The notes: generated by a model not told the origin, from the letters alone. A stretch of 35,555 nucleotides of DNA from an uncultured candidate division WWE3 bacterium (GCA_963765125.1 CAVXUZ010000004.1:258792-294346); one strand, 5' to 3'. Counted from the first letter of the stretch, positions 2,013-17,461 are shown. Translations and numbers: made by a program.

Positions 2013-3116
2013 ATGGAGCCGAATAACGATTTATTAAATGAATCTTCGCAGCCTTCTATAAAATCATCTGACTCTACTAGCATTCCTGAAGCGCCAGTAC
2101 CTATAAAAGGTAAAAAAAACAATAAAAAATTTATCTTAATTGGTATTGCGTTATGTTTGTTCATTGGGACCATCTCACTTTTAGTAAAGGTATCTTTTTT
2201 TGAAAAAGATAGTGCAGATTTTGATAAAGAAATTGGTTTTAATGACAATGAATATGTTAACAGTGAAAATGAGGATTGGAGTCAAGATCAGAGTCAAAAC
2301 GAGATCGAGAATACTTCTGATTACACAACGTACGAGTATAAGGAACCTGAATTTTTAAGAGAAAAAAAATTAACACTTGAGGAGTATCAAGAACTTGAAC
2401 CTAAACTCGCCCCATTATTTGGTGTTATAGAGGTGAACAACGCCATTTTTACACATAGTATTAACCACAATGGAATAGAAATAAAATGGACGGACAAGCA
2501 ACCGCTAAATTCGGAAAAGATAGATTGGATAAAAAGAATTTTGGATTCAGCCCCGGAGTATCTTTCAAAAAACTATCCAATTAACCAAATCTTATCCGCA
2601 AACTACCAAGAAATGGGGTTTTCTGAGATGGAGGAAACTCTTTCTACAAACACCGCTGCTTACGCCAGCGGAACAAACATATTTATTGCAGATAAACTTC
2701 TACAAGATGTTGCAAGTGCTGTGAGTGATCCTATTACGGAGGCTGAATTCAGACGTACCTTGTATCATGAATGGATGCACGTAGCCCAGTACCAGGAGCT
2801 TATTCAGACACTAACAGAAGAATACTTAAGGGAATATTCCGCATCAGGTATAAGGCACCTATTCAATATTAGTCCCTACGTCGAAAATTTTGGTTTTTCA
2901 GCTGGATGGTATTACAAAGAAAATTTTACTACGCCAGACTTAAAAGAGGATGAAGAGTCACAAAAATCCTCGTGGTATGGAAAATTCATGATGTATGAAG
3001 ATATGGCTGAAACAGCGAGTGGGGTTTTTACGTGCGATGCTTATGAATACTCTCAGGCAAGAATTAATTACATCACCAAGCTAGCAGGTAAACAGGCTAA
3101 GGACTTTTGCTTTTAG
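2013..3116 (+). CDS. Membrane-anchored putative zinc metalloprotease (HExxH)
   Basis: N-terminal basic patch plus TM helix, acidic linker, LYHEWMH and downstream EDMAET third-ligand-like motif. Confidence 0.7.
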   Translation: MEPNNDLLNESSQPSIKSSDSTSIPEAPVPIKGKKNNKKFILIGIALCLFIGTISLLVKVSFFEKDSADFDKEIGFNDNEYVNSENEDWSQDQSQNEIENTSDYTTYEYKEPEFLREKKLTLEEYQELEPKLAPLFGVIEVNNAIFTHSINHNGIEIKWTDKQPLNSEKIDWIKRILDSAPEYLSKNYPINQILSANYQEMGFSEMEETLSTNTAAYASGTNIFIADKLLQDVASAVSDPITEAEFRRTLYHEWMHVAQYQELIQTLTEEYLREYSASGIRHLFNISPYVENFGFSAGWYYKENFTTPDLKEDEESQKSSWYGKFMMYEDMAETASGVFTCDAYEYSQARINYITKLAGKQAKDFCF

Positions 3117-3171
3117 TAAACGTTTTTTAGTGTTGACGTTTTATTTAATGTTTAGAAATAAAATATCCCCA

Positions 3172-3218
3172 GAAGAAATGTATCTTAGGGGATATGCTTT
3201 AGGGTAAAAAAAGGCACC
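3172..3218 (+). repeat. Degenerate third copy of the type-A cassette arm
   Basis: TAGGGGATATGCTTTAGGGTAAAAAAAGGCACC resembles TAAGGAAATATATTTTAGAGTAAAAAACAGGCACC at about 5349-5383; TGGCT core absent. Confidence 0.55.
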
Positions 3219-3239
3219 CAGTTTTTTGATGGGTGCCTT
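3206..3239 (-). terminator. Terminator of cassette gene 3313-3570
   Basis: AAGGCACCCA/TGGGTGCCTT stem with a U-tract on the minus strand. Confidence 0.8.
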
Positions 3240-3312
3240 AAAATCTAATTGCTGTTAGTGTTTATCAGTTGGGAATAGGATGGTGAGTTAAGAGTGTCTG
3301 CATATATTTGAG

Positions 3313-3570
3313 TCAGCTTCTGTCCTTTTCGTACCACAGAGTTCCAGTCCAGGCTCTAAACACGATATCCATAGTTGCTTCAAGTCCAAAAGAACCACCA
3401 ACAATTTTTCCATTCTCATCCTTCTCAATACATTGAAACACACTGCATCTGCATATTATACCGCCGCTTGCGTTTTTCTTGTGGTGCTTTATTAAGGCAT
3501 CGCCGAACTCTTTCTTAGTCTCACCCTCGATAGTAGCGTTGCACTGAATACAAAATCCTTCATATGACAT
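3313..3570 (-). CDS. Small hypothetical protein, possible Zn-binding (cassette cargo 1), 85 aa
   Basis: Start reassigned to ATG 3570 (SD AAGGAGAGG, downstream of the promoter); CIQC...HH...CRC...C pattern. Confidence 0.75.
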   Translation of the reverse strand: MSYEGFCIQCNATIEGETKKEFGDALIKHHKKNASGGIICRCSVFQCIEKDENGKIVGGSFGLEATMDIVFRAWTGTLWYEKDRS

Positions 3571-3608
3571 GACAGCCTCTCCTTTTCTATACTCATCAAT
3601 TTGAGGGG

Positions 3609-3637
3609 ATTTTACCAGCAAAATTAAAAGTTGTCGA
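3609..3637 (-). promoter_or_regulatory. Cassette promoter 1
   Basis: TCGACA-17-TAAAAT with TG extension. Confidence 0.7.
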
Positions 3638-3720
3638 TACTACAGGGTACATGGCTCCCCGCAGTTGATGCTACACAAGTAGAGGAGTGGGTTGGGGGAT
3701 ATAATTTTGAAACAAAAAAA
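3633..3720 (+). repeat. att-like junction A1 (P arm + TGGCT core + A arm)
   Basis: GTCGATACTACAGGGTACA-TGGCT-CCCCGCAGTTGATGCTAC...; clearly homologous to 5290-5375. Confidence 0.8.
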
Positions 3721-3757
3721 GACCTTATTTGGATTTACCAAGAAAGGTCTTTTTTGT
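3712..3757 (-). terminator. Terminator of cassette gene 3791-4255 (bidirectional-looking)
   Basis: ACAAAAAAAGACCTT...AAGGTCTTTTTTGT. Confidence 0.8.
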
Positions 3758-3790
3758 AAATTTAATTTACTTTTTTTTACGACGGTTTAT

Positions 3791-4255
3791 CTAGGGTAAT
3801 AACGCGTGTATCCCCTCCGGTAGAACCTCCAAAACACTCATCCCGGTTCCCATTTCCGCAGTGATCTTTCTTGTCGTAGGTTCGAGACCATTGAAAAAGA
3901 TTATAGTATTACCTACTCTAAACGCTGCCGTAACCAGATTTTTATTCCACACCTTTATGTCGTTATTATAAAAATACCCTGCAGAGTTAGTAATTAACTC
4001 TTTGCTATCTGTTCTCCAGATAGTTATTGCATACACTAACTCGCTGTCTGATGTTGACACAAGGGACTCATAAAGGGTGAGTGGCCCTAATTCCCATAAG
4101 GAGTACCTAGAATCAGGATTGTTTATATTTATGACAGTATGTCTCTGCCCAACAGACACAAGTCCTGTTGCTAAGGCTGCAACAAACATGAGAAATACAA
4201 CAAATAATATAACAAATATTTTTGAGTAATTACCTTTTCTAGCTGAGCTTTTCAT
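3791..4255 (-). CDS. Hypothetical membrane-anchored/secreted protein (cassette cargo 2)
   Basis: 154-aa ORF, SD AGGAGGAG, N-terminal hydrophobic helix. Confidence 0.8.
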   Translation of the reverse strand: MKSSARKGNYSKIFVILFVVFLMFVAALATGLVSVGQRHTVININNPDSRYSLWELGPLTLYESLVSTSDSELVYAITIWRTDSKELITNSAGYFYNNDIKVWNKNLVTAAFRVGNTIIFFNGLEPTTRKITAEMGTGMSVLEVLPEGIHALLP

Positions 4256-4317
4256 TATCTTAACTCCTCCTGAACATTTTTGATTTGAGATTGTTGTACA
4301 AGCTTATTGTTGCTGGA

Positions 4318-4346
4318 ATTTTAGCATCAAAACAGCCTCGTGTCAA
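4318..4346 (-). promoter_or_regulatory. Cassette promoter 2
   Basis: TTGACA-17-TAAAAT with TG extension. Confidence 0.8.
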
Positions 4347-4524
4347 TACTATAGGGTGTTGGCTCCTCCGGCTGACACACGCTCATTTCATTCGCTACCA
4401 ATTTCGCTATAGTTCGCTTCGCTCTCTATAGTCTCAATTGTTGAACCTCGCTGGCTAGGTTTGACCCCACTCCAGAGAAACAAAAAACTGGCTACCATAA
4501 AAATGATATCCAGTTTTTTGGCTC
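4342..4524. repeat. Type-B element copy 1 (P arm, 120-nt tRNA-like unit 4360-4479, hairpin 4482-4519, second TGGCT core)
   Basis: Near-identical to 5821-6003; begins with an exact tRNA-Asn 3'-end match. Confidence 0.9.
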
Positions 4525-4682
4525 GGGACAGCGGACATATTACTACACCAACGACTTGACCTTGATTATAGTTTGGAAGAACTACAAATGGCGTTTTCAA
4601 GGCTTAATATACCTGTGCCTATCTTTTCTTAAATTCCAATTTGTTGGACGCCTAATCAACAAATCATTACATTTTATAAACG

Positions 4683-4733
4683 AAAAACGCCGTAAGATAG
4701 AGGGAAATTGTTAGTTTCCATACCTTACGGCGT
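4683..4733 (-). terminator. Terminator of cassette gene 4759-5196
   Basis: ACGCCGTAAG/CTTACGGCGT stem with a U-tract on the minus strand. Confidence 0.7.
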
Positions 4734-4758
4734 CTGATGCTTTGAAGCCGAGAGAGAT

Positions 4759-5196
4759 TTAGCCTCGCCAGATGACTTCCAAGCCGATACCCTGTGCTTC
4801 AACCTGTTCCTGAACGGTTGGGTAGTTGTAACTCGTGCGGTTCGCCCAATCCATCTTGCCGAGGTTAATCACAGGAAAGCCATTCTTTTTCAACAGCTTG
4901 TTCAACTTCTCGTACGTCATATTGCCCTGTGCGAGAGTGCGGAAAGTAACACGGCCTTCCTTTTGAGCCTTTTTGAGGGCGGAAACAACAGCCTTGTGAA
5001 CTTCCTCGCCTTGCTTCGGGTTGCTACTGAAAGCCATTTTCACTTCGTTTCCCTCGCCGTGTTGGCCGGGGTTCAATGCGTGGTCCTTGGTGCAACCGAA
5101 GCAGAAAAGAGCGTCATTCAAGTCGCTTGTAGTAACACGGCCTGATTTGAGGGCATACAAAAGCCCCGTGAACGATACGAACAGTTTCTTTGCCAT
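4759..5196 (-). CDS. Hypothetical protein (cassette cargo 3)
   Basis: 145-aa ORF, SD GAGGAGG, visibly GC-richer than its neighbours. Confidence 0.82.
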   Translation of the reverse strand: MAKKLFVSFTGLLYALKSGRVTTSDLNDALFCFGCTKDHALNPGQHGEGNEVKMAFSSNPKQGEEVHKAVVSALKKAQKEGRVTFRTLAQGNMTYEKLNKLLKKNGFPVINLGKMDWANRTSYNYPTVQEQVEAQGIGLEVIWRG

Positions 5197-5265
5197 TACG
5201 GCCTCCTCATAGGGTGTTTATACTGCCACGTATTTGGTGTGCAGTTTTAGAATTATTATAGGCTA

Positions 5266-5294
5266 ATTATATTATGAATGTAGGAAGGCGTCAA
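5266..5294 (-). promoter_or_regulatory. Cassette promoter 3
   Basis: TTGACG-17-TATAAT. Confidence 0.8.
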
Positions 5295-5375
5295 ATACTA
5301 TAGGATTATGGCTCCCCACAGTCGATACTACTCGAATAGAGGTGTGGGTAAGGAAATATATTTTAGAGTAAAAAA
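5290..5375 (+). repeat. att-like junction A2
   Basis: GTCAAATACTATAGGATTA-TGGCT-CCCCACAGTCGATACTAC...; homologous to 3633-3720. Confidence 0.8.
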
Positions 5376-5403
5376 CAGGCACCTATTTGTTAATAAGTGC
5401 CTG
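5370..5403 (-). terminator. Terminator of cassette gene 5471-5764
   Basis: CAGGCAC...GTGCCTG stem with a U-tract on the minus strand. Confidence 0.75.
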
Positions 5404-5470
5404 AAAGGCAGTTTTCCTCTTTAATTTGTTTGAGGCTTAATTTGAACATTGTTCTGTAATTTGGCTCAGG

Positions 5471-5764
5471 CTAATATGTTCTTATTGTCGAACCCTTGAA
5501 CCAGAAACCTGTGCAAACATATAATTCGACTTGTTTTCCGGCGGGGTTGGTGGCGATAGCGTCAAATTTTGATGCGTCTCCATGTGAGCATCCTAGAAGT
5601 CCCACTGCAAACCAGTGATGGCTCGTAATGGTAATATCTGAGTACCCCGCGGTATCCAGAGCATTGATAGCCTTTTCCTCTTTATTGAAATAGCCTACGC
5701 ATAGACAGGCAATTATACCCAACACAAGAAAAATATATACAAAACACCTTGCAATACGAGACAT
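5471..5764 (-). CDS. Small membrane-anchored protein resembling a phage-type hypothetical family (cassette cargo 4)
   Basis: TM helix then A..AL...GYSDI.IT...W......CS..D....F.A.N..G..V...VC.G..KG.TIR pattern, recalled from phage proteins and not searched; SD AAGGAG. Confidence 0.75.
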   Translation of the reverse strand: MSRIARCFVYIFLVLGIIACLCVGYFNKEEKAINALDTAGYSDITITSHHWFAVGLLGCSHGDASKFDAIATNPAGKQVELYVCTGFWFKGSTIRTY

Positions 5765-5796
5765 TTTTTTTCTCCTTATTTGATTGAATTGTGAGA

Positions 5797-5825
5797 ATTT
5801 TACCCCAAAAGCAGGAAATAGTCAA
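5797..5825 (-). promoter_or_regulatory. Cassette promoter 4
   Basis: TTGACT-17-TAAAAT. Confidence 0.75.
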
Positions 5826-6003
5826 CCTATAGTGTCTTGGCTTCTCCTGGTGACACACGCTCATTTCATTCGCTACCAATTTCGCTATAGTTCGCTTCGC
5901 TCTCTATAGTCTCAATTGTTGAACCTCACAAGTTAGGTGCAATTCCACTCCAGAGAAACAAAAAACTGGCTACCATAAAAAATGATATCCAGTTTTTTGG
6001 CTC
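5821..6003. repeat. Type-B element copy 2 (tRNA-like unit 5838-5957, hairpin 5960-5998)
   Basis: Near-identical to 4342-4524. Confidence 0.9.
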
Positions 6004-6073
6004 TACATAGCGGAGGATGTTAGAAGGTGTTTTATGTAAAATCTATATCGTTTTTATCTAGTAAGATGTATAT

Positions 6074-6622
6074 GTGAAGGAAACACTAGACGATTTTACA
6101 TTATTAAGGAAGTTTATTGACGAAAACCTGGATGAATATTTTGATGAATTATACGATCGTTACTCTAATTTGACTTATCAAAAGGCTTTTCACTATGCCC
6201 AAAACTTTCAAGATGCGGAAGATATAACTCAAAATATTTGGGTTAAAGTATACTTTTCACTTTCTAAGTTTCAATTTAAGTCTTCATTTAAGACCTGGTT
6301 ATATAGAGTATCAGTAAACGAGTCTATTAATTATTTGAAAAGTAAGGATAAAAAAGCATTTTTAGTTGAGGATATAACTGTATTTCCAGATATTAACGAA
6401 ATAGAGTTAGAAGAAAATAAAATAGATGTAACTTTTTTGTTAAAACAGTTGTCTAAATTAGATAGAGCACTACTTTTGATGAAGTATGTTGATGGTTATT
6501 CATACGAAGAAATGTCTGAATACACAGGATTTGGTGTAAGTGCTCTTAAAATAAGGATAAAAAGATTAAAAGAAAAGCTTAAAGACTATGAACTTAAAAC
6601 AAGTATCAACCCAACTAAATAA
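6074..6622 (+). CDS. ECF (sigma-24/RpoE-like) RNA polymerase sigma factor
   Basis: Region 2 DAEDITQNIWVKVY...FKSSFKTWLYRVSVN; region 4 LLMKYVDGYSYEEMSE. Confidence 0.92.
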   Translation: MKETLDDFTLLRKFIDENLDEYFDELYDRYSNLTYQKAFHYAQNFQDAEDITQNIWVKVYFSLSKFQFKSSFKTWLYRVSVNESINYLKSKDKKAFLVEDITVFPDINEIELEENKIDVTFLLKQLSKLDRALLLMKYVDGYSYEEMSEYTGFGVSALKIRIKRLKEKLKDYELKTSINPTK

Positions 6623-6785
6623 AGTTTCCACACAGCTCAAAGCCCCCAAAGAACTAAAAATTAAAATAAAAAATGAAATTGCAAGCTTTAAGTTAGTAGA
6701 AGCTTTGTTAACCGTATTTTTTGAAGTTCCTATTCACATTGTAGAAAATTTATTAAAGGAAAAAGGGGGTGATAATAATGAATAA
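6588..6785 (+). CDS. Small hypothetical protein, possible anti-sigma partner
   Basis: 65-aa ORF overlapping the sigma 3' end and the next start. Confidence 0.6.
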   Translation: MNLKQVSTQLNKVSTQLKAPKELKIKIKNEIASFKLVEALLTVFFEVPIHIVENLLKEKGGDNNE

Positions 6786-7611
6786 TGTTACAGGAGGTGT
6801 TTTCAATGAATGGTATACCATTTTGCTGAATTCAATCAATGAACTAGCTGTGCTAGTTGGTGGATTCTTGCCTAAATTATTAGGTGCTCTAGTGCTGCTT
6901 TTTGTCGGTGTTCTTGTGGCTAAATCTATAAGAAGTATCGCTGAAAAGATTCTAAAGCTAACCAAATTAGAAGCGACCTTATCTAAAGGTGCTTTTGATG
7001 AGGTGATTAAGACTGCTGGAGTAAAAGTTAATGTAGTTAGTTTTATTCTTAACTTAGTATACTGGGCGGTGGTTTTAGTTTTTGTTATGTCTGTTGCTGA
7101 TGTATTAGGATTACCCATAGTGTCAAGAACAATCTCACAATTAATAGGTTACATCCCCAATATACTGGCTGGGCTGATTGTTGCAATTATAACCTTTAGC
7201 TTTTCTAGGATTGTTAAAGATTTAATTGTGGTTAGCCTTGAAAGATTAGAGGTTACCTATAGGAATACTTTAGGTAATGTTGTCCAGATTCTGATCAATG
7301 TATTTGGGTTATTAATTGCTGTAAACCAACTTGGTCTGGATTTAAGTCTAATCTACACCAACATCACATTGATTATTGGAGCAATACTTATCACCTTGGT
7401 TATAGTATTTAGCTTGGGCTCAAAGAGTGTAGTTGCGAACATGATAGCAGGTTACTATGTTCAGAAAATGGTTAAGGTTGGCGATAACATTAATGTAGGT
7501 GGTGTAAAAGGTAGAATTAAAGAGCTTACATCTATAAACATGTTGGTTGAAGCCAACGGGGAAACTGTATTAGTTCCTTATACAAAGATACTAGATACAG
7601 GATCTTTCTGA
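6778..7611 (+). CDS. MscS-related membrane protein (conserved TM-helix/CmpX-like repeats + MscS beta domain)
   Basis: FLPKLLGALVLL and YIPNILAGLIV repeats; NMIAGYYV...KVGDNI...GRIKEL; ATG 6778 follows GGGGGTG. Confidence 0.85.
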   Translation: MNNVTGGVFNEWYTILLNSINELAVLVGGFLPKLLGALVLLFVGVLVAKSIRSIAEKILKLTKLEATLSKGAFDEVIKTAGVKVNVVSFILNLVYWAVVLVFVMSVADVLGLPIVSRTISQLIGYIPNILAGLIVAIITFSFSRIVKDLIVVSLERLEVTYRNTLGNVVQILINVFGLLIAVNQLGLDLSLIYTNITLIIGAILITLVIVFSLGSKSVVANMIAGYYVQKMVKVGDNINVGGVKGRIKELTSINMLVEANGETVLVPYTKILDTGSF

Positions 7612-7675
7612 GAAAGTATAATATTCACCATAGGGGAGTTTTTACTCCCCCGTGGGGATTCAAGAGGATTAGATT

Positions 7676-8611
7676 ATGCATAAAAGAATAACAAACCTAT
7701 TATTTTTAATATTATTGACAGTAATACTGTGGTTTTTGAACTATAACTATAGCAATTTAGACCTAAATGGGTTCTATTATTCTTCAATTACTTTAACAGT
7801 AGCTTATGCTTTCTTTTACATTGTTCTTGAGCGTTTAGTTGTAAAAAGACTTAAAGACTCAAAAACAAGATATAACGCAAGGAAGTCGTTGTCCTTTATT
7901 TATTTCATTGTTTCATTTATTGTTATTCTGAGAATTTGGATTCCAAATCCCCAGGCATTACTTGTTTCATATGGATTAATAGGTGCTGGTGTTGCTATCG
8001 CCTTGCAAGATTTTTTCAAAAATATAGTTGGGGGATTAACTATTTTATTTGGGAGTATTTATCGTGCGGGGGATAGAATTGAAATAAACAGCAAATATGG
8101 TGATGTTTTGGATGTAAGTTTGTTTTACACAACTTTACTTGAAATAAGAGAGTGGGTAGCAGGAGATCAAGCCACAGGAAGAATAATCACAGTTCCAAAT
8201 AGCTTTGTTCTATCAAGTCCTTTGCATAACTATACAAAAGACCATAGTTTTATTTGGGATGAAATCAAGTTGCCTGTTACATACGAAAGTGATTGGGAGA
8301 AGGCTATTAAACTTGTTTTGGAAATACTTAAAACTGAAACAGAAGAAGCTACTAGGCGAGCCGAAAAGGAGTTGACCTATTTTGATGAGAGATACTATTT
8401 GTCTAAAAGAAATGTAGAGCCAAGTGTTTATGTCCAGGCTACGGATAATTGGATAATGCTTAATATTAGATACATTACGGATGTGAGAGAAAGGCGTGTT
8501 ACAAACGACAAGCTAACGAGATTGATATTAAGAAGTTTTGATGAGCATAAAGACATTAAAGTTGCATCTAGCACCGTAGCAATTGTGGATTTCCCAAATC
8601 AGAATCAGTAA
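7676..8611 (+). CDS. mscS: Small-conductance mechanosensitive channel (MscS family)
   Basis: GAGVAIALQDFFKNIVGGL...YRAGDRIEI...GDV...TVPNS. Confidence 0.92.
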   Translation: MHKRITNLLFLILLTVILWFLNYNYSNLDLNGFYYSSITLTVAYAFFYIVLERLVVKRLKDSKTRYNARKSLSFIYFIVSFIVILRIWIPNPQALLVSYGLIGAGVAIALQDFFKNIVGGLTILFGSIYRAGDRIEINSKYGDVLDVSLFYTTLLEIREWVAGDQATGRIITVPNSFVLSSPLHNYTKDHSFIWDEIKLPVTYESDWEKAIKLVLEILKTETEEATRRAEKELTYFDERYYLSKRNVEPSVYVQATDNWIMLNIRYITDVRERRVTNDKLTRLILRSFDEHKDIKVASSTVAIVDFPNQNQ

Positions 8612-8622
8612 AAAATGCGTAT

Positions 8623-8934
8623 TTATTTACCGAGTTTGTTATCTAGAAATTCAATGTATTTCTGGCAGTAAGTAAATTCAGCAAAGTTACCCTCTTCTTT
8701 AAGTAGTAGTTGTTCGCATCTTACTTTTTCATTTTCCAAACCGTTTTTAAGTTGGTTATATTCATCTTTCTCGCTTTTCAATATTTCGTTTTCTCTTATA
8801 GCTGCATTTGCGGAACTTTGAAGTTTGATAAATTCGTTATACTTAAAATACACAAAACCACCTGCTGATATTGTTAGTAATACAATGAAGATGAAGAAAT
8901 ACAATTTTATTTTTGATTTTGGTTTTTCGTTCAT
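8623..8934 (-). CDS. Hypothetical membrane-anchored coiled-coil protein
   Basis: TM helix, coiled coil and two Cys; start reassigned to ATG 8934, 10 nt after TGGTAAAAT. Confidence 0.7.
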   Translation of the reverse strand: MNEKPKSKIKLYFFIFIVLLTISAGGFVYFKYNEFIKLQSSANAAIRENEILKSEKDEYNQLKNGLENEKVRCEQLLLKEEGNFAEFTYCQKYIEFLDNKLGK

Positions 8935-9036
8935 TTGCAGGTTAATTTTACCATAGTGTGTGTTTTGCATTATTGAGTATCCAAGGTGTATGAAGTCAGA
9001 ACTAATTTTATGTTGTAGTCATAGGGAAAACTTATT

Positions 9037-9111
9037 TGGCTCCTCCGGGTGGACTCGAACCACCAACCTACCGGTTAACAGCCGGGCGCTCTGCCATTGA
9101 GCTACAGAGGA
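9037..9111 (-). tRNA. tRNA-Asn (GUU)
   Basis: TCCTCTG...CTGTTAA...GGTGG-TTCGAGT-CCACC-CGGAGGA-G-CCA; full cloverleaf, 75 nt. Confidence 0.97.
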
Positions 9112-14430: not shown

Positions 14431-14802
14431 ATGGATGATATTTATCGCGAACAATTAATGGATCATTATAAAAACCCTCAAAACAGGGGACATATGGATG
14501 GTTCAACAAAAGAGCAGACAAAAAATAATCCTTTCTGCGGGGATGTAATCAAAATGCAGATAAAAATTGCTGATGGTAAAATTGAAGACATTAAATTTGA
14601 CGGCGCTGCGTGCGCGGTAAGTGTGGCTTCAGCATCAGTGTTAACTGGGTTGGTGAAGGGCAAGTCAATAGAAGACGCCAAAAAAATCACCAAACAAAAA
14701 CTTGTCGAAACATTAGGAGTTGAACTTACAACGAGTAGAATGAAGTGCGCGGAATTGCCGCTTGAAACACTGCATAGTATGCTAGAAGGTCTTGAAGAAT
14801 AA
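14431..14802 (+). CDS. sufU: SufU/NifU-N type scaffold or sulfur acceptor
   Basis: DHYKNPQN, NPFCGD, ACAVSVAS, SRMKCA. Confidence 0.9.
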   Translation: MDDIYREQLMDHYKNPQNRGHMDGSTKEQTKNNPFCGDVIKMQIKIADGKIEDIKFDGAACAVSVASASVLTGLVKGKSIEDAKKITKQKLVETLGVELTTSRMKCAELPLETLHSMLEGLEE

Positions 14803-15691: not shown

Positions 15692-15922
15692 ATTTGTGGA
15701 GTGAGGGTGAATAGCTCAGTTGGTAGAACAGACGTCTTTAGATCGACGAAGTCGAGCGCAAGTGAGTTATAGTTTGAAAAGTAATTTGTGGAGTGAGGGT
15801 GAATAGCTCAGTTGGTAGAGCAGACGTCTTTAGATCGACGAAGTCGAGCGCAAGTGAGTTATAGTTTGAAAAGTAATTTGTGGAGTGAGGGTGAATAGCT
15901 CAGTTGGTAGAGCAGACGTCTT
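15692..15922 (+). repeat. 92-bp tandem repeat (2.5 units) containing tRNA-Ile 5' halves
   Basis: Units start at 15692, 15784 and 15876; tRNA nt 1-34 at 15705-15738 and 15797-15830; one substitution in copy 1. Confidence 0.95.
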
Positions 15923-15964
15923 ATACACGTCCGGTCCCTGGTTCGAGCCCAGGTTCACCCACCA
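15889..15964 (+). tRNA. tRNA-Ile (UAU)
   Basis: GGGTGAA-TA-GCTC-AGTTGGTA-GAGC-A-GACGT-CTTATAC-ACGTC-CGGTC-CCTGG-TTCGAGC-CCAGG-TTCACCC-A-CCA. Confidence 0.93.
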
Positions 15965-16588: not shown

Positions 16589-17461
16589 TTACAAAACGCT
16601 AAGTTCTGTTTTTTCTTCTTCTGTTTCTCTTTCAATGTACTGTAAGTATCTTTCTGTGGTAGAAACTCTCATGTGCCCAGCAATTTTTGATACTTGCAAA
16701 AGGTTGGTACCTCTTTGTAAGTGCTGTGCTACGAAAGTGTGTCTTAGGTCGTTCACTTTTGCGTTTTCAACTCCTGCCAAATCGTAGAATCTTTGGATAG
16801 TTGATCTGATGTTTCTTACAAGCATAGGGTTTCCGGTTTTTGTGATGAAGACATGAACTGCTTTTTCTACTTTTGGTCTTTCTTCATTGATGTATTTTTG
16901 AATAGCTTCAATAACCGCCTCGTTCAAAGGCACTGTTCTTGTAGGTTTGCTATTTTTTGCTGGAATATGAAGAATTTTTTCAACCTCAAGTTTTAAGTGG
17001 TCTAGTTGCATTTCTGCCAATTCTGAAATTGTAATTCCTGTTTGGAGTAGCGTTTCAATAATTGCGTATGTTCTTCTGTCACCTCTGGCGGCGTCTCTTA
17101 ATGCTCTGTACTCTAGTTTTGATAATATTCTTGGAGCTTTTATAACTACTTTTGGATGTCTTAGATCATCGGCAATGTTTTTAACGATATGTGCTTTATC
17201 CATCAAAAATCTAAAAAATGTTTTTGTTGAATTAGTTTTTCTTGAGATTGATTTTGGAGTGTATTCCTCGTTTGCTAGTTTTTCCATAAAGCTTTGCAAG
17301 TGAGTAAGCTCAATTTCTTCAACAGCGTTTACACCTTTTCTTTCAAGATACTCAACTAATTGCTCGATATCTTTTCCGTAAGCAATCAAAGTTGAACCTG
17401 AACGATTCAGGCTACCTAGATGATCTATAAAATTTTTGTGGGCAACTCTTAGTTCTACCAT
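16589..17461 (-). CDS. XerC/XerD-like tyrosine recombinase family protein, atypical active site
   Basis: N-terminal core-binding domain (TLIAYGKDI, SISRK...FFRFL); TGITISE, VNDLRHTF, GH...TTERY. Confidence 0.9.
   Translation of the reverse strand: MVELRVAHKNFIDHLGSLNRSGSTLIAYGKDIEQLVEYLERKGVNAVEEIELTHLQSFMEKLANEEYTPKSISRKTNSTKTFFRFLMDKAHIVKNIADDLRHPKVVIKAPRILSKLEYRALRDAARGDRRTYAIIETLLQTGITISELAEMQLDHLKLEVEKILHIPAKNSKPTRTVPLNEAVIEAIQKYINEERPKVEKAVHVFITKTGNPMLVRNIRSTIQRFYDLAGVENAKVNDLRHTFVAQHLQRGTNLLQVSKIAGHMRVSTTERYLQYIERETEEEKTELSVL

Follow-up and report, generated by a model that had tools for sequence, protein, structure and literature searches.

The 3' ends of tRNA genes are classic targets of tyrosine integrases, with the asparagine tDNA islands of enterobacteria spanning tens of kb and carrying such enzymes. 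The Patescibacteria (candidate phyla radiation, CPR) have tiny genomes with few recognised mobile elements, and to our knowledge the acquisition of accessory genes in these bacteria is poorly understood. Here we describe an array of small gene units at positions 3150-9111 of a 35,555-nt stretch of DNA from an uncultured candidate division WWE3 bacterium (the window, G000:C4:258792-294346; genome G000 comprises 844 kb in 6 contigs, with ~37% GC, and is 92.5% complete). The array reads on the minus strand throughout, co-oriented with a tRNA-Asn(GTT) gene running from 9111 to 9037, and is best explained, with a probability of roughly 0.72, by serial site-specific integration of the large serine recombinase (LSR) type at tRNA-Asn, which would have left integrase-less, promoter-bearing cassettes.

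Among described systems, the cis-mobilisable elements (CIMEs) of the ICESt1 family keep their attachment (att) sites, have lost their integration and transfer genes, and lie in tandem at a tRNA 3' end, with tandem accretion arising when a newcomer integrates next to a resident element (PMC5704250, in the parts dealing with these elements). The G000 units fit this definition, appearing as att-bounded units without integration or transfer genes, in tandem at a tRNA 3' end; however, CIMEs are presented in those parts of the source as decayed integrative conjugative or mobilisable elements of tyrosine or serine recombinases in Firmicutes, whereas the units here resemble single-gene cassettes made to size, and their junction is conserved across Patescibacteria genera. 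Pfam, LSR and PHROG searches of the array units revealed no LSR or transfer-gene remnants and no conjugation genes. LSR integrative elements (A118/LI, Bxb1 and phiC31 types) are similar in that an LSR gene adjoins the attachment site in relatives of G000, and in their short sites, imperfectly palindromic in the LSR elements of those relatives, with a small shared centre and a distal motif 5 bp farther out in the element-type half-site. In contrast to such elements, most units here, down to ~0.5-0.8 kb, lack a recombinase, and they stand in series at a tRNA gene whose T-loop provides the distal motif. The LSR gene that defines such elements is lacking from 3150-9111 and present in the tRNA-Asn elements of relatives.

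An earlier annotation made without database searches (the sequence-only reading) had likened the array to an integron. The outline is indeed alike, with a one-orientation stack of small, unrelated, mostly ORFan cassettes behind a fixed site and junctions alike in form, but the array is not a member of that family because it has no IntI tyrosine recombinase, no attC, and a promoter of its own, as well as a terminator, in every cassette, with sites derived from a tRNA. The enterobacterial islands differ in being large, in bearing tyrosine integrases and in belonging to another phylum. The likeness to them lies in the repeated targeting of tRNA-Asn genes and the tandem arrangement of islands (PMC4891358). 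Literature on CPR tRNA-gene integration, serine recombinases and integron-like cassettes yielded nothing describing the present arrangement.

The tRNA-Asn array, its sites and the recombinases of relatives

Six cores resembling the 3' end of tRNA-Asn split 3150-9111 into units, four of which are cassettes made up of a promoter, a Shine-Dalgarno (SD) sequence, a small open reading frame (ORF) and a terminator, with unrelated cargo. On the minus strand, GAGCCA is found at 3652, 4360, 4519, 5309, 5998 and 9037, and AAGCCA at 5838. The sequence-only reading had pointed to this recurrence of the tRNA-Asn 3'-end hexamer, and its coordinates, arms, SD sequences, terminators and unit lengths (708, 159, 790, 529, 160 and 3039 bp) are all correct; its picture of single-gene cassettes needs correction for the 3039-bp unit, which has five ORFs, only one of which shares the strand of the tRNA. 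Outward from the tRNA, the order is the 3-kb unit, core 1, the mini-element copy D1b, core 2, the 97-aa cassette, core 3, the 145-aa cassette, core 4, the mini-element copy D1a, core 5, the 154-aa cassette, core 6, and the 85-aa cassette at the end of the stack (Table 1). In the best reading, tRNA-Asn would be an attB-type site and the cores would derive from its last ~25 nt (GGTTCGAGTCCACCCGGAGGAGCCA). Cores 1, 3 and 6 form a class of ~30 nt with a T-loop motif at the start and GAGCCA at the end, and core 1 matches letter for letter the core behind tRNA-Asn in the related genome G093.

Hexamer statistics were rejected as sole evidence for the cores, with GAGCCA occurring 19 times in the window against 10.8 expected, a count reached in 3 of 100 shuffles and not significant. 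Two further minus-strand copies, at 5462 and 5619, lie inside an ORF and are absent from the sequence-only list. The cores rise above chance because of extended repeats and a 13-nt identity: 4349-4503 and 5827-5981 (D1a/D1b) form a 155-nt repeat at 91% identity, 3651-3721 and 5308-5378 (D2a/D2b) a 71-nt repeat at 76%, and 4359-4371 is identical to the tRNA-Asn 3' end over 13 nt. Behind four cores stand minus-strand promoter-like sites (TTGACA, TTGACG, TTGACT or TCGACA, 17 nt, then TAAAAT or TATAAT; scores 10-11 of 12), each followed by an SD sequence, a single ORF (85, 154, 145 or 97 aa) and a hairpin with a T-run, so that the four small genes do each have their own promoter, SD sequence and terminator, as had been claimed. 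As a class, promoter-like sites are not enriched in the region (18 versus 20.1 in shuffles). None of the four small ORFs has a Pfam family above cut-off or a paralogue in G000, PADLOC found no match for six cargo proteins, and among PHROGs only the 97-aa protein was matched (family 902, of unknown function). Furthermore, GC varies by unit (0.50 and 0.29 versus ~0.37). The four units are best explained as minimal integrase-less cassettes of foreign and unrelated origin, each with a sigma-70-type promoter.

Upstream of tRNA-Asn, DUF1189 and ArsR are conserved at 16 loci of relatives; downstream of the G000 tRNA-Asn, nothing is matched by a homologue in the relatives' DNA that was fetched. Similarly built arrays with other cargo stand at tRNA-Asn in other genera (G036, G093, G025 and G028), with five core-plus-arm junctions and small ORFs of 99-172 aa in G036, and four junctions 460-480 bp apart, plus three on a second contig, in G093; G119 has two such junctions, the tRNA lying outside the stretch fetched. 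The cores of these arrays are ~30 nt long (e.g. AGTTCGGATAAAGTTCTGTATGGGGAGCCA), with a T-loop-like start and a tRNA-like end. A search for the junction elsewhere, which the sequence-only reading had suggested, found GCCA-N4-7-CTRTAG-N1-3-TTGAC in 26 of 86 family genomes, at 37 places versus 1 in a reversed control, with arrays of three such junctions on two contigs of G093.

The 145-aa protein is present in 2 of 134 class genomes, G000 and G028, which belong to different genera, with 89% protein identity. At the DNA level the cassette is 86% identical across 573 nt, from window position 5322, inside core 3, to 4754; the G028 copy lies between two near-identical 37-nt cores, with other neighbours and at a different array position, the order there being tRNA-Asn, a 277-aa unit, a core, a unit of DUF6922 and AbiEii, a core, the 145-aa cassette, a core, an LSR gene and the contig end. 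The G000 DUF1189 is 28-39% identical to those of relatives (that of G028 excepted) versus 86% for the shared cassette. For the remaining three small proteins, the 134 genomes gave 22% identity in G010, 35% in G088, and none. These comparisons indicate that one cassette has demonstrably been exchanged between genera. The gain and reordering anticipated at tRNA-Asn are thus evident, with the left homology break at a core as predicted and the other just after the ORF.

Domain searches agree that no recombinase gene lies within 3150-9111. Using the LSR of Saccharibacteria contig L220 (Pfam Resolvase, Recombinase and Zn_ribbon_recom) as a tblastn query, LSR genes were found at tRNA-Asn in 5 of 18 relatives' loci, with the ORF converging on and running into the tRNA 3' end; tRNA-Asn elements with an LSR were seen in G005, G007, G008, G012, G017 and G028, that of G028 at the far end of its array. 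The LSRs of the five loci are 20-53% identical among themselves, and several LSR lineages therefore use the tRNA-Asn site. The LSR elements of G008 (~11 kb), G007 (~10 kb) and G005 (~8 kb, with a second LSR element behind it) carry at their far ends a ~30-nt core, A-CTTCG-...-ATGGGGAGCCA, which is the core found between integrase-less cassettes in G093, G025, G036, G119 and G028.

Two observations concern individual LSR genes. In the LSR frame at the end of the G028 array (locus L349, G028:C3, ~14510-14590), an in-frame TAA stands where relatives have the Q of an S-x-E-A-Q motif, the longest ORF beginning past it; the stop reflects either a nonsense mutation or an error in the sequence. The LSR genes of L220 and L248 come from metagenome-assembled genomes (MAGs) whose titles name Saccharibacteria and Berkelbacteria; their 92% identity over 206 aa suggests that the gene moved recently or that there is a fault in binning or labelling.

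The geometry of the sites also fits the serine type. Counted from the T that opens the TTC motif to the A that closes GCCA, the distance is 23 nt in all three intact tRNA-Asn genes of the junction set. Of 25 internal junctions, 15 (12 between cassettes and 3 at the ends of LSR elements) have 28 nt, with 27 nt in one and no motif in nine; cores 1 and 3 of the window, read by eye, also give 28 nt. The GTTCG motif thus lies 5 nt farther from GCCA in cores than in the tRNA. For serine integrases, attB sites have the motif of the zinc-ribbon domain 5 bp closer to the centre than attP sites do (Rutherford et al., PMC3783163, in its description of these sites), and the offset between cores and tRNA equals this published attP/attB offset. 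Additionally, in the LSR elements of G005, G007 and G008 the arm that precedes the core (CTTCGTATA) recurs in inverted form behind the tRNA (TATACGAAC), ~47 nt away and with the centre of symmetry in GGGGAGCCA; there are 10-13 of 21 identities at the best register versus 4-8 at others. With this centre, the distal motif would fall at roughly positions 15-23 in the half belonging to the element and 10-18 in the half belonging to the tRNA.

Taken as a mechanism, DNA units would have been inserted one by one into the 3' end of tRNA-Asn by site-specific recombination, each insertion restoring the tRNA and pushing older units outward with a displaced or element-borne copy of its tail. LSRs would be the makers of the G000 array, the enzyme most likely acting in trans, with the T-loop-to-CCA segment of the tRNA serving as the attB left half-site, the ~30-nt pseudo-T-arm cores as attP-type left half-sites, and crossover falling inside the shared ...GGAGCCA. 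The original suggestion of non-autonomous cassettes stacked by a trans-acting recombinase is upheld in so far as integrase-less units do lie between tRNA-Asn-derived sites and a candidate LSR class exists in relatives; no excision or insertion event was seen.

Weighing the explanations

Several observations weigh against serial LSR-type integration. In addition to the lack of a recombinase gene in the array, the only LSR of G000 stands beside a different tRNA, is truncated by a contig end, and shares no more than 30% identity with any tRNA-Asn-linked LSR. This ORF, at the end of contig C5 (C5:480769-482252, locus L311), converges on tRNA-Gln(CTG) and matches PF07508 above cut-off and the PHROG 95 integrase (E 1.8e-26); no Resolvase domain was found in G000, the N-terminus being lost at the contig end, and because the ORF is cut there, an LSR element would be present in G000 but incompletely assembled. 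Cores 2 and 5 are preceded by a type-A scaffold (see below) without the 5-nt offset, and in the small cassettes the arm after the core, read by eye, shows no clear inverted match to the arm before it. The right break of the G000/G028 homology lies 5 nt past the stop codon, away from any core, and terminator and core modules are therefore exchanged separately and reshuffled also by other means. The assembly is of metagenome type, in few contigs and incomplete. Two public metagenome runs contain parts of the region, with 25% and 10% of the sampled words, and their low-depth contigs hold no joints of circle or deletion form; because these contigs are patchy, the runs indicate neither circles nor their absence. 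A weak hint is that three of the four places inside the array where partly fitting contigs diverge are cores (5998, 9043 and 4518), the fourth being 4733.

Finally, eight promoters in G000 are headed by the arm motif without any core. The motif, searched as CT[AG]TAG-N1-3-T[CT]GAC, occurs at 13 sites in G000: four in the array, one behind a tRNA-His tail copy, and eight without a tRNA-like core. Because eight of the 13 sites lack a core, and seven of these combine a fitting -10 box with an ORF downstream, the arm is at least a promoter-proximal motif of this lineage's small accessory genes. The arms had been read as adjuncts of the cores, and they are present at the four array promoters; a role as recombination arms finds no support in this distribution. 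In three genomes (G036, G085 and G024) the arm stands 5 nt behind an intact tRNA-Asn. The small contigs C1 (6.4 kb) and C2 (9.1 kb) of G000, which are near-identical with alternative continuations, each carry two CCTATAG-TTGAC promoters and are probably strain variants of another cassette region.

The best-surviving alternative is an active, integron-like platform, in which single cassettes would be excised and reinserted by an LSR in trans, with tRNA-Asn comparable to attI, the 30-nt cores to attC, and the arm acting as both right half-site and promoter. The internal junctions would suit this, having the full, attP-like form of P arm, core and arm, an almost constant spacing from GCCA to CTATAG, and TTGAC at nt 14-18 after GCCA, the same distance as CGAAC in LSR elements, as would the ~460-550 bp cassettes in series in G093 and the cassette common to two genera. 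However, pairs of attP sites are not normally recombined by serine integrases (PMC3783163, in its treatment of site pairing), and the core-less arms, the absence of joints from the public-run contigs and the right break of the shared cassette away from a core also tell against this platform, which is therefore doubtful.

A tyrosine recombinase, whether a phage or island integrase or an Xer-like enzyme, could instead have built the array, as the classic use of tRNA 3' ends by such integrases would allow. A gene for a 290-aa tyrosine recombinase (Phage_integrase and SAM-like N domains; 16589-17461, minus strand) does lie 7.5 kb from the array, and the same gene is 3.1 kb from tRNA-Asn in G028, but it holds its place between tRNA-Ile(TAT) and two tRNA-Met genes, and is probably an Xer-type housekeeping gene because this neighbourhood is the same in G019, G004 and G028. 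PF00589 matches in G000 comprise two Xer-like genes, neither at the array. As the arrays fetched show LSRs and no tyrosine integrase, and the 5-nt offset matches LSR sites, this origin is improbable. Beside the recombinase gene, a tandem repeat at window positions 15692-15922 (2.5 copies, period 92, 99% matches) joins the 5' half of tRNA-Ile(TAT), as far as the anticodon loop, to a 58-nt spacer and leads into the intact tRNA-Ile at 15889-15964; it may have been left behind by events at that loop.

Local duplication and divergence of promoter and terminator modules, without site-specific integration, would account for the D1a/D1b and D2a/D2b repeats within one locus, but is very unlikely given the unrelated cargo of differing GC, the recurrence of the junction in 26 of 86 genomes, and a cassette 86% identical across genera beside a DUF1189 only 28-39% identical to relatives other than G028. 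An assembly artefact, with a MAG contig chimeric or collapsed where the locus is rich in repeats and varies between strains, as the 155-nt repeats, the near-duplicate contigs C1 and C2, and the merely piecewise matches of related-strain contigs might suggest, is hardly credible alongside comparable arrays in independent genomes, one on a 460-kb contig, and pieces from run X1 that match 5998-6125, 6351-6590 and 8791-9043 with no differences.

Features of the locus

The coordinates of the array are collected in Table 1. The 154-aa ORF has a hydrophobic stretch at its N terminus, and beyond the 85-aa cassette lies a convergent 367-aa gene ending at 3116. The 3-kb unit next to the tRNA has no homologue among the fetched tRNA-Asn flanks of relatives, and its GC drops to 0.29 across the gene for an extracytoplasmic function (ECF) sigma factor. 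This gene overlaps the 65-aa ORF, a possible anti-sigma factor, within 6074-6785, with the two MscS-like genes next, all four being opposite in strand to the cassettes.

Table 1. Features of the tRNA-Asn array in window coordinates, with example element copies elsewhere in G000 in contig coordinates
Feature	Position	Strand	Basis
tRNA-Asn(GTT), anchor	9037-9111	-	ARAGORN; Rfam tRNA 66.3 bits
tRNA-proximal 3-kb unit, five ORFs	6028-9036	mixed	ORF calls, Pfam, GC
115-aa ORF (3-kb unit)	8623-8970	-	ORF call
Two MscS-like channel genes (3-kb unit)	7676-8611 and 6769-7611	+	Pfam
65-aa ORF (3-kb unit)	6588-6785	+	ORF call
ECF-type sigma factor (3-kb unit)	6074-6622	+	Pfam
Core 1, 30-nt pseudo-T-arm core CTTCTAACATCCTCCGCTATGTAGAGCCA	5998-6027	-	sequence comparison
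D1b, structured mini-element copy (~148 nt): bidirectional terminator hairpin (arms 5954-5976 / 5982-6004) and type-A scaffold (CAATT..CTATAG hairpin..AATTGGTAGCGAATGAAATGAGCG)	5851-5997	-	repeat and scaffold comparison
Core 2, degenerate tRNA-Asn 3'-end copy CCAGGAGAAGCCA (repeat family D8)	5838-5850	-	repeat search
Arm and promoter of 97-aa cassette: CTATAG-G-TTGACT, 17 nt, TAAAAT	5797-5837	-	promoter scan
97-aa ORF (5471-5764) and terminator (5376-5403)	5376-5764	-	ORF, hairpin; PHROG 902, function unknown
Core 3 (repeat D2b), pseudo-T-arm core ATTCGAGTAGTATCGACTGTGGGGAGCCA	5309-5338	-	repeat search; G028 DNA homology begins inside, at 5322
145-aa cassette: arm and promoter 5266-5308, ORF 4759-5196 (GC 0.50), terminator 4683-4732	4683-5308	-	
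Core 4, degenerate core GTAGTAATATGTCCGCTGTCCCGAGCCA (family D7), homologous to core 1	4519-4546	-	repeat search
D1a, structured mini-element copy: hairpin arms 4481-4498 / 4503-4520 and type-A scaffold	4372-4518	-	
Core 5, exact 13-nt copy of tRNA-Asn 3' end CCGGAGGAGCCAA	4359-4371	-	repeat search
154-aa cassette: arm and promoter 4318-4358 (TTGACA, 17 nt, TAAAAT), ORF 3791-4255, terminator 3715-3755	3715-4358	-	
Core 6 (repeat D2a), pseudo-T-arm core ACTTGTGTAGCATCAACTGCGGGGAGCCA	3652-3680	-	repeat search
85-aa cassette: degenerate arm and promoter 3609-3651 (CTGTAG-TA-TCGACA), ORF 3313-3570, terminator 3203-3239	3203-3651	-	
Element copy at tRNA-Ser	C4:217592-217757		
Element copy at tRNA-His	C5:231545-231715		
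Element copy at tmRNA	C4:208311-208560		

The structured element behind tRNA and tmRNA genes

The 159- and 160-nt units, which the sequence-only reading had counted among the gene cassettes, instead repeat a structured element that stands behind many tRNA genes. The best explanation of D1a and D1b is that this element, which in the phylum normally lies directly behind tRNA genes, was carried along. In G000, 12 of 45 tRNA genes have their own 3' end repeated behind them on the same strand over 12 to 20+ nt, with 11 of the 12 tail copies ending 140-190 nt downstream of the gene; within 6 kb there are none upstream or on the other strand. The transfer-messenger RNA (tmRNA) gene also has a tail copy, and tRNA-Leu(TAA) has four. 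The element itself, of ~100-150 nt, stands behind 11 tRNA genes and the tmRNA gene, and each unit is ordered as a terminator hairpin, a conserved scaffold and a copy of the gene's end from C56. At tRNA-Leu(TAA), a second array (C5:129500-134430, locus L055) holds between its four tails a 492-aa radical-SAM/SPASM-like ORF (motif read by eye) and 280-aa, histidine-phosphatase-like and 129-aa ORFs, with no recombinase seen.

Two scaffold types were distinguished. Type A (D1a/b, tRNA-Ser and tRNA-Glu) has a hairpin with a CTATAG stem, and type B reads ...GAA-G-N-C-GGAG-hairpin-GAG-N'-C-GGGGTCGA-hairpin-GTGAC. Type B occurs in 29 of the 134 class genomes, at 84 places versus 1 in the control, and in at least 93 loci of MAGs titled Patescibacteria, from many lineages. 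Among 95 type-B instances listed, 77 lie less than 400 nt downstream of the end of a tRNA or tmRNA gene on the same strand, with 52 of these 77 copying that gene's tail exactly over at least 12 nt; in 51 of 54 cases C56 is the exact starting point of the tail identity, which stops where the tRNA does, whether CCA is present or not. Seven copies of CAATT..AATTGGTAGCGAGTGAAACGAGCGT, related to the type-A scaffold, were also seen in G047 (loci L003, L017, L020 and four more), not beside tRNA genes in the stretches seen.

On 46 sequences, support was found for a structure of four helices, one of which pairs the 5' box with the copied T-loop/T-stem, with 91.3% of cells paired versus 65.1% in shuffles (0 of 500 reaching the observed value), 325 double-change cells versus 106, and 32-47% pairing in slid controls. 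The main hairpin has 875 of 950 positions in Watson-Crick pairs, 14 G-T and 7 A-C, with its AGCA loop kept in 87 of 95 instances and its bulged A in 88 of 95. Because wobble pairs are so scarce, the fold suggests a folded DNA strand or a very strict RNA. The element may accordingly be viewed, at somewhat short of even odds, as a single-strand recombination or targeting module, or, a little less readily, as a structured RNA linked to tRNA loci, with some other nature less likely than either. In Rfam, tRNA alone reached the gathering score, the scaffolds having no match even at E up to 1-10; the strict scaffold pattern gave 0 matches in IMG/VR viral contigs, where a loose pattern gave 120 loci, rejected as high-GC chance matches only. 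A reverse transcriptase was matched in G000 only below threshold.

The tails were considered as retro-copies of mature tRNA, which was rejected since CCA-less genes mostly have CCA-less copies (23 cases). A fixed-length target duplication is disfavoured, as the repeat ends with the tRNA, at 21 nt if CCA is encoded and 19-20 nt if not, and G131 also speaks against it: the unit at tRNA-Gln(ctg) there is that of tRNA-Gln(ttg), with a ttg-type tail. The element thus travels together with its tail. In L220 and G008, LSR elements have gone in between the tRNA and its resident unit, and the old tail persists in degenerate form ahead of the hairpin, which explains cores 1 and 4 of the window.

Whether Patescibacteria possess a serine-recombinase analogue of the integron, with tRNA landing pads and cassettes shared across genera, together with a phylum-wide element of four covarying helices that would work as a folded, single-stranded recombination or targeting module and not as an ordinary RNA gene, is at present a tentative proposition. 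The locus and its counterparts in other genera nevertheless point to a compact route of gene acquisition, in which self-expressing cassettes would be stacked at tRNA-Asn via serine-recombinase-type sites. The geometry of these sites supplies candidate attB/attP pairs for integrases of uncultured lineages, which are of interest for genome engineering, and the structured element, phylum-wide and absent from Rfam, is to be accounted for in the tRNA gene organisation or the mobile DNA of the phylum.

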